Below are positions 12,520 through 18,434 of a stretch of 20,587 nt of DNA, piece by piece. Every line of letters begins with the position of its first letter. Positions within the stretch are counted from its first letter, which is position 1. Location of the stretch: positions 1 to 20,587 of the IMG/VR virus record IMGVR_UViG_3300029862_000030. One strand, written 5' to 3'. A program made the translations under genes and the position numbers. Under the pieces are notes generated by a model. It saw nothing but the letters and a program-made list of their open reading frames with translations. It did not search any database and was not told where the DNA came from. Source of the stretch: a virus. Lineage: Duplodnaviria; Heunggongvirae; Uroviricota; Caudoviricetes.

Positions 12520-13035
12520 ATGGATAAAACCAGAAAATATGACAGAGCCTTACAACTTGAAATCCTCAATGCCCTTATAGATTGCGCGCCTAACTCTTTA
12601 AACAAGGCACAGGAGCGAGACCTCATTGAGAAGTTTGACAGTTACGATCACTTTGTGGCGTGCATGTTATACCTTGAAATGCATGGTCTCGTTTCCACCC
12701 CCTTCATACGCAGTGACACCATGGCTGGCGTTGAGTTTATCTTCTGTGCCCCTAACTGCTACATTACAGAAAAAGGAATTGATTTTCTTCTCGATGATGG
12801 CGGCTTAAGTGCGATCCTTAAAGTTCAGACCTTTCGGTTACACAGTGACACGATTGTTGCCCTTGAGGATATAATCCGTGTCGCAAATATATCTGAAGAT
12901 CAGAAGAAGGGATTGATTTCAAAACTCCGAGAGCTTCCGGGAGACGCCATAAAACATTTGACCCTACAGTTACTGACTCAGGGGGTTCTGAATCTGCCGA
13001 ACGCACTTCGACTAATTCAAACAACCCTCCAGTAG
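12520..13035 (+). CDS. Hypothetical protein, unknown function; AT-rich gene on the opposite strand to the late operon
   Basis: 171-aa plus-strand ORF with a GGAG Shine-Dalgarno sequence 9 nt upstream of the ATG. Base composition is visibly more AT-rich than the flanking late genes. It is inserted between the HNH endonuclease and the small terminase gene. Confidence 0.6.
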   Translation: MDKTRKYDRALQLEILNALIDCAPNSLNKAQERDLIEKFDSYDHFVACMLYLEMHGLVSTPFIRSDTMAGVEFIFCAPNCYITEKGIDFLLDDGGLSAILKVQTFRLHSDTIVALEDIIRVANISEDQKKGLISKLRELPGDAIKHLTLQLLTQGVLNLPNALRLIQTTLQ

Positions 13036-13563: not shown

Positions 13564-14028
13564 CTACTTAATGCACTGAGTGCGGATATACTCCTGTGCC
13601 CCTTCCAGTTGCATCTGCATCGTCATCAGCCGCTCTCTGAGGGTGAAATAATCCCGTTCAGCGGTGTCTGCCAGTCGGGGGCTGGTTGCATTATCCACGC
13701 CGGAGGCGGTGGTGGCTTCACGCACTGACTGACAGACTGCTTTGATGTGCAACCGACGACGACCAGCGGCAACGTCAGCGCGAAGAGTTTCATTTTCAGC
13801 CTTCGCATCAGCTAACTCCTTCAGGTATTTTGCATCGAGTGCAGCAACATCACGCTGGCGTATCTGCATGTCAGTAATGATTGCGGTCGCCTGGTTGAGT
13901 TTTTCCATCACATTATCGCGTTGCGCTTTGTAGGTAATGGCATTATCACGGTAATGATTGACCGCCCACGACAGGCAGACGATGATGCAGATAACCAGAG
14001 CATAAATAATCGCGGCGACTCTGCTCAC
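13564..14028 (-). CDS. Rz: Spanin inner-membrane subunit (Rz / i-spanin)
   Basis: Near-identical over long stretches to lambda Rz as recalled ([27 protein letters not shown]..., [25 protein letters not shown]). The track ORF begins at TTG 14043; the likely true start is GTG 14028 (VSRVAAII, aligned with lambda MSRVTAII), overlapping the endolysin stop. Confidence 0.9.
13626..13808 (-). CDS. Rz1: Spanin outer-membrane lipoprotein subunit (Rz1 / o-spanin), nested inside Rz in the +1 frame
   Basis: 60-aa ORF with the lipobox LVVVGC and the proline-rich segment [29 protein letters not shown], almost identical to lambda Rz1 as recalled. Confidence 0.85.
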
Positions 14029-14558
14029 TGATCTATCCCCCAACAGGCTAATGCGCTTTCCTGGTCACGACGAATAACCTGTCCATAGCAGTTATTTGAA
14101 CGTATGCGGCAATCGCGCCCACCATCTTTTATCCACCAGCGAATCGCCTCGCATGCGCCCTTACGATCACCGGCATTCAGCCGCTTATAAAACGTCGACG
14201 GAAAACACTTACCGGGGCCAATGTTATAGGGACAGAATGACGCGATACCCGCTTTTTGTGGTTCGGTCATTGGTACTTTAATATTGCGCTCTACCCATGC
14301 CAGCGCCTTATCACGTTCAATAGCGTTAACCTGGTCGCATTTTTCCTTCGACAGTTTCATACCGGGAAAAACGGGTTTTCCATCCACCATCGTGGCACCC
14401 CGACAGATGGTCCAGATGCCGGAACCATCGCGGTATGCCGTTGTGTGGTTACCTTCTTTTTCATCCAGAAACTGGTCGAGAATGTCAGGCGCAGGCGCAC
14501 CTGCGGCAATCAGCGCCAGAACGGCAGCCGACAGGCCGTATCTGATTTTTGCGTTCAT
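14025..14558 (-). CDS. SAR endolysin (lysozyme, phage 21 R / Qin RrrQ type)
   Basis: 177-aa ORF. The N-terminus ([27 protein letters not shown]) is a Gly/Ala-rich, weakly hydrophobic signal-anchor-release segment. The body is lysozyme-like and matches my recollection of the E. coli Qin prophage lysozyme. Confidence 0.9.
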
Positions 14559-14608
14559 GGATATTTATCAGGATTTATCGGTTCCGAATACCTGGATATG
14601 TTAAGTCT

Positions 14609-14953
14609 TCAGCCCAGCGGTGGAGTCTTCAGAGAACCAGTAATTCTTCCCGGTAGCTTTCCTTTGTAGGTTATCCACACATTCTGCGCCTCTAAAATTA
14701 CGGGGCGCTTTTCCGGCGACTGCTCACCCCCTTCACATAACCCGGCAGCAACATCCAGGAAGACCTGTCTGATGCTCCTTCTGGCTGCTGCCTCATAAAA
14801 CTCCAGCGCGGCACCTTCAACACGGTCCAGCGAGATGTCCAGGTCAAAAATTTCACCGTCAAAGCGTTTTTTGTCCCGTAACGCTAAAGTTACCGTAACT
14901 TTATTCTCAAAATTGCGGATCCCTTTCACAATCAGTTCATAGTTTTGAGTCAT
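14609..14953 (-). CDS. YdfR-like (DUF1327-type) conserved protein of unknown function between holin and endolysin
   Basis: 114-aa ORF. Its position between holin and lysozyme is the same as ydfR in the E. coli Qin prophage. The family assignment is from memory. Confidence 0.65.
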   Translation of the reverse strand: MTQNYELIVKGIRNFENKVTVTLALRDKKRFDGEIFDLDISLDRVEGAALEFYEAAARRSIRQVFLDVAAGLCEGGEQSPEKRPVILEAQNVWITYKGKLPGRITGSLKTPPLG

Positions 14954-14957
14954 TGAA

Positions 14958-15173
14958 TTACTCTCCCCGTGCAGCCTTACGCTTGTCTTCTCTGATTTTG
15001 AAGTACAGATTTGTCAGATAAGTCAGGAAGCCCAGAACCAGACTCCCCAGTACACCAATCGCAGCCCACTGTGACGGACTGACCTGATCAAGCCACTGTA
15101 AAAACCAGTAGCCAGCACTGCCTGCGGAGGTGCCGTAGGCAATGCCCGTTGAAATTTTGTCCATGGATTTCAT
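14958..15173 (-). CDS. Class II pinholin (phage 21 S-type) with a dual-start motif
   Basis: The 71-aa product [71 protein letters not shown] matches the phage 21 S holin as recalled. The track ORF 14958..15272 was trimmed to the ATG at 15173, which has a GGAGG Shine-Dalgarno sequence. M1 and M4 give the antiholin/holin dual start. Confidence 0.9.
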
Positions 15174-15310
15174 AGCCTCACCTCCGCAGCGAACGGATGG
15201 CGTAGTTATAAGGGGAGCGAAAAAGAAAGAATGCGCGATTGCGCAATATGGTAACGTCAGGGTATTATCCACTGGCTGAATAGATCACTTCACGTTTTTT
15301 GTTCCTTGCC

Positions 15311-15338: not shown

Positions 15339-15344
15339 GCATGT

Positions 15345-15374
15345 AAAAAGGCCCCAACACATGTGCGTGGGGCC
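15345..15374 (-). terminator. Candidate minus-strand intrinsic terminator upstream of the holin (possible tR'-like element)
   Basis: Minus-strand reading gives a GGCCCCA/TGGGGCC stem around an 11-nt loop containing the palindrome CACATGTG, followed by TTTTTAC. Confidence 0.45.
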
Positions 15375-15574
15375 TGAGAGTATACATGGTTTCAGTCAAC
15401 TGCATGGTGCCGGGTGCCTCCCGGTGAATTCAGTACCAGCACCTGAATCCGCGATTATCCCATATACCTACTCGCTGATTGCCCATCCGCACAGGGGGAT
15501 TCACCATGCCAGTTTCTTTTAACAAACTCCCCGCAAAACAGACAACTGTCAACCGTCTGAATTGTGAGACATTT

Positions 15575-15614: not shown

Positions 15615-15691
15615 TGGCGCGTTGTACTGGATTCGAACCAGTGACCGATTGCTTAGAAGGCAATTGCTCTGTCCGGTTGAGCTAACAACGC
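15615..15691 (-). tRNA. tRNA-Arg (anticodon TCT, reads AGA), argO-like
   Basis: Hand-folded from the reverse complement: acceptor stem GCGTTGT/ACAACGC, D arm GCTC..GAGC, anticodon stem ATTGC/GCAAT with loop CTTCTAA, T arm CTGGTTCGAATCCAG, discriminator G and an encoded CCA. Similar to E. coli argU. Confidence 0.8.
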
Positions 15692-15704
15692 AGGGTACAG
15701 ATAA

Positions 15705-15781
15705 TGGACCGCCATCGAGGACTCGAACCCCGCGCAACCAGCTTCGAAGGCTGGTGCTCTATCCTGATGAGCTAATGGCGG
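15705..15781 (-). tRNA. tRNA-Arg (anticodon TCG as read by hand, reads CGA), argN-like
   Basis: Hand-folded: acceptor stem CCGCCAT/ATGGCGG (C1-G72), D stem GCTC/GAGC, anticodon stem CCAGC/GCTGG with loop CTTCGAA, T arm CGGGGTTCGAGTCCTCG and an encoded CCA. The anticodon call depends on my loop assignment. Confidence 0.65.
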
Positions 15782-15788
15782 TATGTGA

Positions 15789-15864
15789 TGGTGGCCCTTG
15801 CTGGATTTGAACCAGCGACCTGGCGATTATGAGTCGCTCGCTCTCACCACTGAGCTAAAGGGCC
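15789..15864 (-). tRNA. tRNA-Ile2 (anticodon CAT, lysidine type, reads AUA), ileZ/ileX-like
   Basis: Hand-folded 76-nt sequence GGCCCTTTAGCTCAGTGGTGAGAGCGAGCGACTCATAATCGCCAGGTCGCTGGTTCAAATCCAGCAAGGGCCACCA, which closely resembles E. coli tRNA-Ile2 (ileX) as recalled. Anticodon loop CTCATAA. Confidence 0.8.
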
Positions 15865-15904: not shown

Positions 15905-16243
15905 TCATCCGTTCTGGCTGACTAAATCCTGTACTTCCCGAACCGTCTGCTCAAAACGTTCAGTCTCCAGCTCAACGCCAATTGCACGACGCCCGAGCGC
16001 CAGTGCCGCTTTCACTGTCGAACCCGACCCCATGAAAAAATCTGCAATCAGGTCACCCGGACGACTGCTAGCGCTGATTATCTGCTGCAGCATTTCTGCC
16101 GGTTTTTCGCACGGATGTTTCCCGGGATAGAACTGCACCGGTTTATGCGTCCAGACATCGGTATACGGCACCTGCGCCGTCACGCCAAAATACCGCCGCA
16201 GTCGGCATTCACAACCACCAGCGCATTTAACGTTCAGGCACAA
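15905..16243 (-). pseudogene. 5'-truncated DNA N6-adenine/N4-cytosine methyltransferase remnant (C-terminal part only)
   Basis: The 112-aa ORF contains HPCEKP (the HPTQKP-type motif) and DFFMGSGST (the FxGxG AdoMet-binding motif) near its C-terminus. These are the C-terminal half of beta-class amino-methyltransferases. No DPPY motif or N-terminal half is present; the reading frame runs into the AT-rich region upstream of the porin. Confidence 0.6.
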
Positions 16244-16693
16244 AAAAACCCGCTCATCGGCGGGTTTAAGCTGTGTGACGAAGTAACTACTCTTAACAGC
16301 ATAACCAATTTTTTACGTACGTAAACTACTAAATGATATTTGTGAGAATGCCACCGAGTGTTCAAAACACCACCACAAATACATAAGAAAATTTCAACAA
16401 ATAACCAATTAATAATTTCAGATGTTATTTTTAGTTTGTTTAAATTAAGCTAAAGAATTATAGACTGCTTATAAATAAGTTCCATTAATATAAATTAGCT
16501 AATAGATTTATTTTTGTTCAAACAAGAGCCATAAATAGGATTAGATAGAAAAGGTTCAGATAAAAATAGAGATCTACTTCACAAATTAAATGAGAAACTA
16601 AAACTTACATCTTGAAATAATCACATTGATTAGATGAATATTTATCGCGCAGTGACATCATTTTTTAATAATAGTTCAAAAAAAGGGTGTACA

Positions 16694-17776
16694 ATGAAAA
16701 AATTAACAGTGGCAATTTCTGCTGTAGCTGCATCAGTACTGATGGCGATGTCTGCTCAGGCAGCTGAAATTTATAATAAAGACAGTAACAAGCTGGATCT
16801 ATACGGGAAAGTTAATGCCAAGCACTACTTCTCCTCTAATGATGCAGATGATGGTGATACTACTTATGCCCGTCTTGGCTTCAAAGGTGAAACCCAAATC
16901 AACGATCAACTGACTGGTTTCGGTCAGTGGGAATATGAATTCAAAGGCAACCGCGCTGAATCTCAAGGTTCTTCCAAAGACAAAACCCGTCTTGCATTTG
17001 CAGGCCTGAAATTTGGTGATTACGGCTCAATCGATTACGGCCGTAACTACGGTGTAGCATACGACATCGGTGCGTGGACTGACGTTCTGCCAGAATTCGG
17101 TGGTGATACCTGGACCCAAACAGATGTGTTCATGACTGGTCGCACTACTGGTGTTGCAACTTATCGTAACAACGACTTCTTTGGTCTGGTCGATGGCCTG
17201 AACTTTGCTGCTCAGTATCAGGGTAAAAATGACCGCACTGACGTAACTGAAGCCAATGGTGATGGTTTCGGTTTCTCCACTACTTATGAGTATGAAGGAT
17301 TCGGCGTGGGTGCAACCTATGCTAAATCAGATCGCACTGACGGTCAGGTCGCCTATGGTAAGAGCAAATTCAATGCCTCCGGCAAAAATGCGGAAGTATG
17401 GGCTGCAGGCCTGAAATATGATGCGAACAATATCTATCTGGCTACCACATATTCTGAAACTCAGAATATGACCGTTTTTGGTAATAACCATATTGCAAAC
17501 AAAGCACAAAACTTTGAAGCAGTAGCACAATATCAGTTTGACTTCGGTCTGCGCCCATCTGTTGCTTACCTTCAGTCAAAAGGTAAAGACCTTGGTGTTC
17601 ATGGTGACCGAGACTTAGTCAAGTATGTCGATGTCGGTGCTACTTACTACTTTAATAAAAACATGTCCACTTTTGTTGATTACAAAATCAACTTAATTGA
17701 CGATAGTAAGTTTACCAAAACAGCTGATATTGATACCGACGACATCGTCGCTGTAGGTCTGGTTTACCAGTTCTAA
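16694..17776 (+). CDS. nmpC: Outer membrane general porin, NmpC/OmpC/OmpD family
   Basis: The track ORF 16634..17776 contains the signal peptide [23 protein letters not shown] followed by [16 protein letters not shown] and a C-terminal ...VGLVYQF beta-barrel signature, matching NmpC as recalled. The start was trimmed to the MKKL Met; my nucleotide count in that line disagrees with the track frame by 1 nt, so the start is good to about 1 nt. It is on the opposite strand to the phage late genes and preceded by about 370 nt of very AT-rich DNA. Confidence 0.9.
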
Positions 17777-17965: not shown

Positions 17966-18349
17966 TTAATTAGAGTTATTAACAACGATATCCATCTCTA
18001 ACTGGATATCTAATGCCATTAACATCCCTTCAATTATGCCCTCAGCCTTCTGTAACCTTTTCCCGATATAACCATCAGAGCAGCAATGCTTACCTGCCAG
18101 TGACATGAATGTCATACCGACTACATAATAATCTACTAATAAATCGTGCAAATCGCTGTTGTTCTTTTTCAGACGGGCCATGCACCCGCAAATGATCATA
18201 GCGTCATCGTCACAACATTGCGGGCGAGATTTTACTTTTGAAGTAATTAATCCCTTAAAACCGGCGGCAATGGACGACCAGGTCACATCTTCATGATTAT
18301 TAGCCGCCCACGCTCCCCAACGCTCAAGAACCATCTGAATATCACGCAT
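17966..18349 (-). CDS. Late-gene antiterminator Q (DLP12 QuuD-like)
   Basis: The 127-aa product from the ATG at 18349 ([22 protein letters not shown]...) matches my recollection of E. coli QuuD. The track ORF starts 5 codons earlier at an alternative TTG. It lies downstream of rusA and ylcG, as in DLP12. Confidence 0.8.
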
Positions 18350-18434
18350 CAACTTACTCCACAAAAATCAGACCAGAACGCCAATTACAAGCAAAAATCA
18401 ACAAAACAGTATTAGTTGATTGTTATCTCTGACT

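Follow-up and report, generated by a model that had tools for sequence, protein, structure and literature searches.

Gene content and setting of the locus

The window, the whole 20,587-nt stretch of the Caudoviricetes record IMGVR_UViG_3300029862_000030 analysed here, carries five intact genes on its minus strand between positions 13564 and 15173, in the order S, ydfR, R, Rz and Rz1 (Table 1), and the features described in the initial annotation are all present within the interval that it gave. Each of the five has a family match in Pfam and in PHROGs, and these matches lie far above the level expected by chance; NCBIfam holds no models specific to the cassette proteins. The gene junctions within the cassette point to a coupled operon. 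A Q antiterminator gene lies upstream and HNH and terminase genes lie downstream, and the interval between Q and S contains a methylase fragment and a porin moron, the porin gene being located on the opposite strand. The late promoter was not located in a scan for promoters and terminators, in which promoter-like sites were no commoner than in shuffled sequence. Two longer open reading frames, one of 104 aa starting at a GTG for S and one of 159 aa starting at a TTG for Rz, were dropped in favor of the ATG and GTG starts, respectively, which are backed by homologs and by RefSeq annotation.

Table 1. Features of the lysis cassette and their positions in the window.
Feature	Position	Strand	Details
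S, holin gene, predicted dual start	14958..15173	-	71 aa; PF04971, E 1.4e-35
ydfR (DUF1327)	14609..14953	-	114 aa; PF07041, E 5.8e-43
R, predicted SAR-type endolysin, T4-lysozyme-like muramidase	14025..14558	-	177 aa; PF00959, E 1.9e-24
Rz, predicted i-spanin	13564..14028	-	154 aa; PF03245, E 3.3e-49
Rz1, predicted o-spanin lipoprotein	13626..13808	-	60 aa; PF06085, E 6.6e-20
S Shine-Dalgarno sequence, GGAGG	15181..15185	-	7 nt 5' of first ATG; read from sequence

Holin, endolysin and spanins

The N-terminus of the S protein reads MKSMDK, the codons for Met1 and Met4 being in frame, and the protein scores 121.5 bits (cutoff 26) with the Pfam family 'Bacteriophage P21 holin S' (PF04971). Initiation at the ATG at 15173 would yield a predicted antiholin form of 71 aa, in which the MKS extension contributes Lys2 and one additional positive charge, and initiation at the ATG at 15164 would yield a predicted pinholin form of 68 aa. 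S thus read appears to encode two products, one from each Met codon. Phage 21 S, with which it is identical at 70 of 71 residues, is annotated with the same motif, the same GGAGG ribosome-binding site and the corresponding two products (antiholin S21-71 and pinholin S21-68), in support of the dual start that had been proposed for this gene. More distant relatives include DLP12 EssD (87% identity), Qin EssQ (82%) and 933W S (76%).

The topology of S was read from a simple hydropathy scan, which reveals two charge-free segments, a weak one at residues 7-28 (55% G/A/S/T, below the KD threshold) and a strong one at residues 30-58 (KD 2.02) that includes the small-residue zipper G40xxxS44xxxG48. 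Because only a single strongly hydrophobic TMD is accompanied by a weak, Gly/Ala/Ser-rich TMD1, S would have two TMDs at most, and its length of 71 aa leaves no room for a third. S is predicted to be a class II holin and not the three-TMD class I type that the initial annotation had named as contrary to its proposal. In a minimum free energy fold of the S 5' region, a small hairpin is predicted that takes up the GGAGG in its 3' arm, and a mini-hairpin pairs both AUGs; the hairpin around the ribosome-binding site is not significant in this fold (z = -0.7), and therefore no regulatory RNA structure is claimed for the region.

The R protein carries the catalytic triad E35-X8-D44-X5-T50 and is 94% identical to Qin RrrQ and 92% identical to 933W R, with only 38% identity to RrrD and 35% to R21. 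By sequence it belongs to the RrrQ/933W R subfamily and is not of the R21 type. At its N-terminus, K4 and R6 precede an 18-residue charge-free stretch (residues 7-24, 56% G/A/S/T); this weakly hydrophobic segment, with a KD17 of 1.65 compared with 2.29 for the R21-like RrrD, is kept across 31 enterobacterial homologs. In the AlphaFold (AF2) model, residues 11-30 form a kinked helix packed on the enzyme at a pLDDT of 94-95. Of the 177 columns of the model, 170-174 align with R21 in its full-length form (3HDE, TM 0.65-0.67), compared with 140 columns for truncated R21 (3HDF, TM 0.52), and the PDB matches of R include 3HDE, 4ZPU and 7M5I. Taken as simple hydropathy, homology and the AlphaFold model, on which the call rests, this evidence supports a putative SAR-type endolysin, in which a signal-anchor-like segment precedes a T4-lysozyme-type catalytic domain; the SAR-like N-terminus of the initial annotation is upheld in the same terms. 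The relative 933W R has been used as a SAR endolysin by Young's laboratory (PMC9239132), and that paper cites a thesis as the primary evidence for its SAR status. The definitive test of a SAR endolysin is that it is membrane-tethered and inactive until depolarisation or a pinholin frees the enzyme (PMC9239132).

Alternatively, the N-terminus of R could be an ordinary cleavable Sec signal peptide, the product being a soluble periplasmic enzyme that is restrained as long as the membrane is energised, or through another form of control. The hydrophobic stretch is indeed short, with 18 charge-free residues, a hydrophobic core at residues 7-21 and a P-A-P end, and it appears nearer in length to a signal-peptide h-region than to the approximately 20 residues of R21; moreover, the relatives 933W R and RrrQ carry A-G-A|S, a plausible signal peptidase I site. 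In the R protein itself, however, both A-x-A sites after the h-region have a proline at +1 (AGA|P and APA|P), and proline at this position blocks signal peptidase I. Other evidence against cleavage is that the N-terminal segment is conserved and modelled with high confidence as part of the fold, that the alignment with full-length R21 includes the SAR region, and that the partner of the R gene is a pinholin, a type of holin unable to free a cytoplasmic enzyme. In addition, the closely related 933W R behaves as a SAR endolysin in the assays of Young's laboratory. A cleavable signal peptide is consequently regarded as highly improbable, and the SAR-type reading of R is retained below.

The GTG start of Rz overlaps the R stop codon as GTGA, and PGAP annotates the same start in strain FY26. 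Rz has a predicted N-terminal TMD at residues 4-20 (KD 3.0) as well as Cys99 and Cys152, both conserved with lambda Rz. All of Rz1 falls within Rz, in the +1 frame (offset 1); AAGGAG lies upstream of the Rz1 ATG, and the product displays a VVGC lipobox with Cys20 and Thr at +2, a PPPPP run and Cys29. Both the overlapping start and the complete nesting agree with what had been described before. The Rz protein shares 85% identity with lambda Rz, 83% with phage 21 Rz and 23% with Qin RzpQ, and Rz1 is 85% and 87% identical to its lambda and phage 21 counterparts, respectively. In DNA, Rz/Rz1 is 88% identical to lambda and has no match to Qin rzpQ. Rz and Rz1 thus characterised share the embedded architecture of lambda and constitute a lambda-type embedded two-component spanin, although their earlier description as almost lambda-identical was an overstatement for what are closely related genes. 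In contrast to the spanins, neither lambda S, a class I holin with three TMDs, nor lambda R, a cytoplasmic transglycosylase, is detectably similar to the S and R of the window, which favors the pinholin/SAR route of the initial annotation over the lambda large-hole route.

The cassette very probably serves as the lysis module in the late operon of a lambdoid prophage of the E. coli type, acting through the pinholin/SAR-endolysin/spanin pathway. By analogy with the phage 21 and 933W homologs, R would be exported by Sec and would stay inactive, tied to the inner membrane through its SAR segment, while S68 builds up and the weakly hydrophobic TMD1 of S68 exits the bilayer; S71, slowed by the extra Lys2, would serve as antiholin. 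At the programmed time TMD2 would make small pinholes and the proton motive force would collapse, upon which the SAR segment of R would exit the membrane and refold into the enzyme body, leading to degradation of the murein. Lastly, Rz in the inner membrane and Rz1, as an outer-membrane lipoprotein, would disrupt the outer membrane.

The ydfR gene between S and R

The ydfR gene starts 4 nt after the S stop codon and its ribosome-binding site, GGAGAG, falls within the last S codons; it is wedged between S and R and appears to be translationally coupled to S. Its product scores 145.5 bits with PF07041 (cutoff 25), and the corresponding PHROGs entry is of unknown function. It is 96% identical to YdfR of PhiR49_2 and strain FY26 and 64% identical overall to K-12 YdfR, with 59 of 72 positions identical in the N-domain. 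A hydropathy scan found no hydrophobic segment and no TMD, and YdfR is predicted to be a soluble, cytoplasmic accessory protein. The AF2 model comprises a strand-strand-strand-helix N-domain with a pLDDT of 70-89 and a C-terminus below 55. Exhaustive sequence searching recovered only close relatives and one 3128-aa G2F-repeat protein, P0161; the latter resemblance (32% over approximately 50 residues, six repeats) was judged likely to be a beta-strand compositional match.

The distribution of ydfR is very narrow, being confined to Escherichia/Shigella, and the gene occurs in 101 phage records compared with 438 that possess the P21 holin family. Its earlier description as an extra inserted gene is correct relative to phage 21 and 933W, but this is a standard annotated YdfR gene, placed as in the K-12 Qin prophage. 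Because phage 21 and 933W are without ydfR, YdfR appears to be dispensable for the pinholin/SAR/spanin pathway.

The location of ydfR nonetheless raises the possibility that YdfR is a dedicated lysis-timing regulator, for example one that works in the cytoplasm and targets SAR release or the basic tail at the pinholin C-terminus, in a role like that of T4 RIII or Mu gp25. In accord with this, the gene is always found between S and R, it occurs exclusively in phages with the P21 holin family, and its junction with S has the geometry that 933W uses for R itself. Such a role is nevertheless considered unlikely, given that phage 21 and 933W lyse without YdfR, that only about one quarter of the phages with the P21 holin family carry the gene, that YdfR has no TMD, and that fold searches returned no lysis-related match. 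Furthermore, overexpression of K-12 YdfR caused no growth defect, and its reported partners are RNase E, the catalytic half of which it binds, and co-purifying RNA (PMC13232886). These partners are the sole experimental clue to what YdfR does.

A different role is suggested with considerable hesitation, namely that YdfR may be a late-expressed phage protein that targets RNA and/or host RNase E, the latter through the enzyme's catalytic N-terminal half, and that shortly before lysis it alters how stable host RNAs or late/lysis transcripts are; translational coupling would keep its amount in a fixed ratio to that of the pinholin. In the 'envelope integrity' screen that is cited for ydfR (Paradis-Bleau 2014), the main text does not name the gene. 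As a narrowly spread gene within one of the best-studied operons of phage biology, ydfR is open to a cheap genetic test.

Mosaic relationships and distribution of the cassette

Comparison with known systems reveals the affinities of the individual genes. Phage 21 (OL657228.1) resembles the cassette in its nearly identical holin, with the Met1/Met4 dual start and GGAGG, in its SAR-type, T4-lysozyme-fold endolysin with the E35/D44/T50 triad, and in its embedded lambda-type spanins. However, the R protein of the window is of another subfamily, which has eight invariant Cys residues and an extra loop, and at the point where the window has ydfR, phage 21 has no gene, its S stop codon and R start overlapping as TAATG. 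The K-12 Qin cassette (essQ-ydfR-rrrQ-rzpQ/rzoQ) shares the S-ydfR-R order, the S/ydfR junction, the close match of R to RrrQ and the YdfR N-domain. It differs in the C-terminal part of YdfR, in an overlap of ydfR with rrrQ where the window has a 50-nt spacer, and in the unrelated RzpQ (DUF2514), which stands in the place of the lambda-type Rz/Rz1. In the Stx2 phage 933W (S-R-ant-Rz/Rz1) the R protein, the P21-family holin and the lambda-type spanins are all similar to those of the window, but ydfR is absent, R directly follows S, and the ant gene is located between R and Rz.

The best matches of S are phage 21 and Qin, those of ydfR-R are in Qin, and those of Rz/Rz1 are lambda, phage 21 and DLP12. 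The cassette thus compared is a mosaic of a phage 21-like S, a Qin-like ydfR-R and an Rz/Rz1 pair that is lambda/21/DLP12-like and not Qin-like. The initial annotation was therefore right that a mosaic exists but wrong in the argument, which relied on the lambda-like Rz/Rz1. Phage 21 Rz is 97% identical to lambda Rz, and 59 of the 60 residues of its Rz1 are identical to those of lambda; the classic pinholin/SAR cassette therefore already has lambda-type spanins, and the joints of the mosaic lie elsewhere. In similar fashion, the label of a phage 21-type cassette holds for S only and fails for R, which is far closer to Qin RrrQ than to R21. Because S and R come from different lineages, such a label is better given gene by gene.

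The closest relatives of the whole cassette are found in PhiR49_2 (PV340570.1) and in E. coli prophages such as that of strain FY26, where it is collinear at 95-96% DNA identity and the gene in the ydfR position is named 'YdfR family protein' by RefSeq. The flanks are shared as well, with tRNAs upstream and, downstream, a 171-aa ORF, a terminase gene and an HNH gene as annotated in FY26. Differences are seen in the last two YdfR residues and approximately 60 nt of the ydfR-R spacer, including a 19-nt indel; upstream, the window has another allele of Q and a porin gene that is DLP12-like. Of 5426 complete E. coli genomes, 2600 have the same collinear arrangement, and the cassette also occurs in sequenced phages, among them PhiR49_2 (96% identical). 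The arrangement, including ydfR, is therefore already known, being annotated in K-12 Qin, about half of the complete E. coli genomes and many sequenced phages, and the cassette is an ordinary textbook module that carries little weight beyond its correct annotation.

Since the closest textbook cases of this gene order, Qin and DLP12, are defective prophages, the cassette might instead belong to a cryptic prophage and be an inactive remnant, as essQ-ydfR-rrrQ is in Qin, kept only by drift or by some benefit to the host, and the methylase fragment and porin moron between Q and S may be seen in the same light. Yet all five ORFs are intact with their starts, ribosome-binding sites and coupling signals, the window also has intact terminase, portal, protease, capsid and tape-measure genes, and 80% of the window aligns at 97% identity with the sequenced phage PhiR49_2. 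An inactive remnant is also at odds with the strong excess of synonymous changes and is judged decidedly unlikely. More specifically, S differs from phage 21 S by 29 synonymous codon changes and 1 nonsynonymous change, and R differs from 933W R by 65 synonymous and 15 nonsynonymous changes, ratios from which purifying selection is evident in both genes.

Layout of the lysis cassette

The interval 13564-15173 holds exactly five intact minus-strand genes, running from the S start codon to the Rz stop, and the five-gene lysis cassette described in the initial annotation is borne out. PHROGs assignments match those of Pfam, the DUF1327 protein falling there in the unknown function category. The gene junctions are of the coupled operon type. 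More specifically, GGAGG lies 7 nt upstream of the first S ATG, the ydfR ATG is 4 nt past the S stop with GGAGAG within the final S codons, ydfR and R are separated by a 50-nt spacer, and AAGGAG precedes Rz1. As first described, the Rz GTG start overlaps the endolysin stop (GTGA is common to both) and Rz1 is nested within Rz in the +1 frame.

Features of the window, in order of minus-strand transcription
Feature	Position	Strand	Details
NinB, YbcO, RusA
Q	17966-18364	minus
Porin gene	16634-17776	plus	intact general porin, PF00267 E 1e-150
Methylase fragment	15905-16243	minus	matches only profile positions 135-220/221 of N6/N4 DNA methylase
tRNA genes Met-CAT, Arg-TCG, Arg-TCT	15615-15864	minus	upstream of S
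Terminator-like hairpin and T-run	15600-15583		after tRNA genes
STnc100 sRNA	15339-15538	minus	full-length RF02076, 133 bits vs gathering score 47
S holin	15173..14958	minus	71 aa; Bacteriophage P21 holin S, E 1.4e-35
ydfR	14953..14609	minus	114 aa; DUF1327, E 5.8e-43
Differing patch	14558-14640	minus	last ydfR codons and ydfR-R spacer
R endolysin	14558..14025	minus	177 aa; Phage_lysozyme, E 1.9e-24
Rz	14028..13564	minus	154 aa, GTG start; Rz lysis protein, E 3.3e-49
Rz1	13808..13626	minus	60 aa; Lipoprotein Rz1 precursor, E 6.6e-20
HNH endonuclease
171-aa ORF	12520-13035	plus	between HNH endonuclease and small terminase; phrog_3983 (unknown function)
TerS, TerL, portal, protease, capsid, on to tape measure

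The whole cassette is already known and annotated. Of 5426 complete E. coli genomes, 2600 have the 1.7-kb unit in collinear form with coverage of 80% or more. RefSeq names its genes there as coding for a class II holin family protein, a YdfR family protein, a lysozyme and a lysis protein. The unit also occurs in 76 phage records.

Holin and endolysin

The proposal of a dual-start holin agrees with the S N-terminus (MKSMDK), in which Met1 and Met4 share a frame, and with the identity of S to phage 21 S at 70 of 71 residues; the phage 21 record annotates both products, the antiholin S21-71 and the pinholin S21-68. A hydropathy scan found one strongly hydrophobic segment (residues 37-53, KD 2.0), while residues 7-28 are charge-free, 55% Gly/Ala/Ser/Thr and under the TMD threshold. 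Unlike the lambda S control, S has no room for a third TMD, and the class I architecture with three such domains was not found. Codon differences from phage 21 S (29 synonymous, 1 nonsynonymous) indicate strong purifying selection on S.

The label of a phage 21-type cassette fits the holin, but not the endolysin. R, which carries the canonical triad E35-X8-D44-X5-T50, is only 35% identical to R21 and 38% to the R21-like RrrD, as against 94% to Qin RrrQ and 92% to 933W R, and is not an R21 ortholog. Nevertheless, the SAR-type N-terminus claimed for it is upheld: K4 and R6 are followed by 18 charge-free residues (56% G/A/S/T). In the hydropathy scan the RrrD control has an N-terminal segment of this sort and the lambda R control does not. 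The segment is kept across 31 enterobacterial homologs. Two A-x-A motifs come after it, both with Pro next, which disfavours signal peptidase I. In the AlphaFold model residues 11-30 have pLDDT 94-95 and form a helix (11-18), a kink and a second helix (23-35) leading into Glu35. An alignment of the model with the active, full-length form of R21 (3HDE) spans 170-174 of 177 columns (TM 0.65-0.67), and one with SAR-less R21 (3HDF) only 140 (TM 0.52). Precedent comes from 933W R, which is listed as a SAR endolysin and used as such in release assays, release by pinholin being the definitive test (PMC9239132). Because of segment conservation, the A-x-A-Pro arrangement, the model and its R21 alignments, and this precedent, R is accepted as a predicted SAR endolysin, a cleavable signal peptide being very improbable. 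Lysis by pinholin, SAR endolysin and lambda-type spanins is supported as the likely mechanism.

Window R and its collected homologs (P0182-P0296) share eight invariant Cys (52, 74, 109, 118, 136, 150, 157, 172), which suggests several periplasmic disulfides in this subfamily, unlike R21. None lies within the SAR segment. About one third of members have Pro at position 22 and most of the rest have Ser; a variable loop reads RIRSNN or LTKGQKNG.

Mosaic structure and prophage context

Window Rz and Rz1 both share 85% identity with their lambda counterparts. Rz keeps its TMD, Cys99 and Cys152; Rz1 keeps Cys29, the proline run and a VVGC lipobox in which Cys20 is followed by Thr at +2. The initial annotation took lambda-like spanins beside a pinholin/SAR pair as the sign of a mosaic. 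This argument fails because phage 21's own spanins are nearly those of lambda (Rz 97%, Rz1 59 of 60 residues). The cassette is a mosaic, of another make-up. S is nearest phage 21 as protein, and its DNA shares about 80-85% identity with both phage 21 and Qin. Qin is matched by ydfR over its 5' two-thirds (83% DNA identity) and by R over its whole length (92%). Rz/Rz1 DNA is 87-88% identical to lambda, phage 21 and DLP12; the Qin spanin gave no match as DNA, and as protein RzpQ is 23% identical. Lambdoid phages normally shuffle modules in this way.

To judge by its sequence, the window is a lambdoid prophage. It is 97% identical to PhiR49_2, the closest phage, over 80% of its length, and 97-99% identical to many E. 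coli chromosomes over 75-80%. The porin gene is absent from PhiR49_2 and the Q allele differs there, so a second mosaic joint lies near 16298. The porin region is 87% DNA-identical to the DLP12 nmpC region, the gene lying antisense between Q and the lysis genes. The adjacent ORF looks like a truncated methylase; PhiR49_2 has a similarly short gene annotated at the matching position. STnc100, which a 2026 preprint links with PasD sRNAs from Stx phages, sits between the tRNA cluster and S, within the presumed late transcript leader. The 171-aa ORF, which has no Pfam match but has conserved counterparts in PhiR49_2 and strain FY26, is probably a moron.

The ydfR gene

The extra gene between S and R is ydfR. 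Qin of K-12 has ydfR in the same slot; in 933W the GGAGAG-TAA-N4-ATG junction used here for ydfR serves R instead. YdfR is dispensable for lysis, since phage 21 and 933W are without it and 101 phage records have ydfR as against 438 with this holin family. The hydropathy scan found no TMD or signal sequence in YdfR.

Functional data found for the family concern K-12 YdfR only: a fragment of residues 1-72 binds the N-terminal half of RNase E (two-hybrid and pull-down), the purified protein carries RNA, and overexpression hardly alters transcriptome or growth (PMC13232886). The window N-domain is identical to this fragment at 59 of 72 positions.

The family is modular: its N-domain (about 70 aa) and a middle segment ending KTPP are conserved, and some members, though not the one here, continue for about 60 aa more at the C-terminus. 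It is also very narrow, with 324 clusters in 5.8 billion proteins when grouped at 90% identity and 64 in 1.84 billion when grouped at 50%; essentially all are from Escherichia or Shigella. Window YdfR is 96% identical to that of PhiR49_2 and FY26, and the gene differs from theirs only in the last residues and a patch of about 60 nt with a 19-nt indel before R; these relatives are otherwise 95-96% identical. The patch coincides with the exact point where long-form YdfR (176-183 aa) runs into its extra C-terminal domain, and for this reason resembles a scar left by deletion or recombination.

A metagenome-derived protein of 3128 aa with 15 G2F-domain repeats (P0161) gave six matches to YdfR 7-58 (32% identity, E 1e-8), which could mean that the DUF1327 core is distantly homologous to a repeat domain, or could stem from beta-strand composition.
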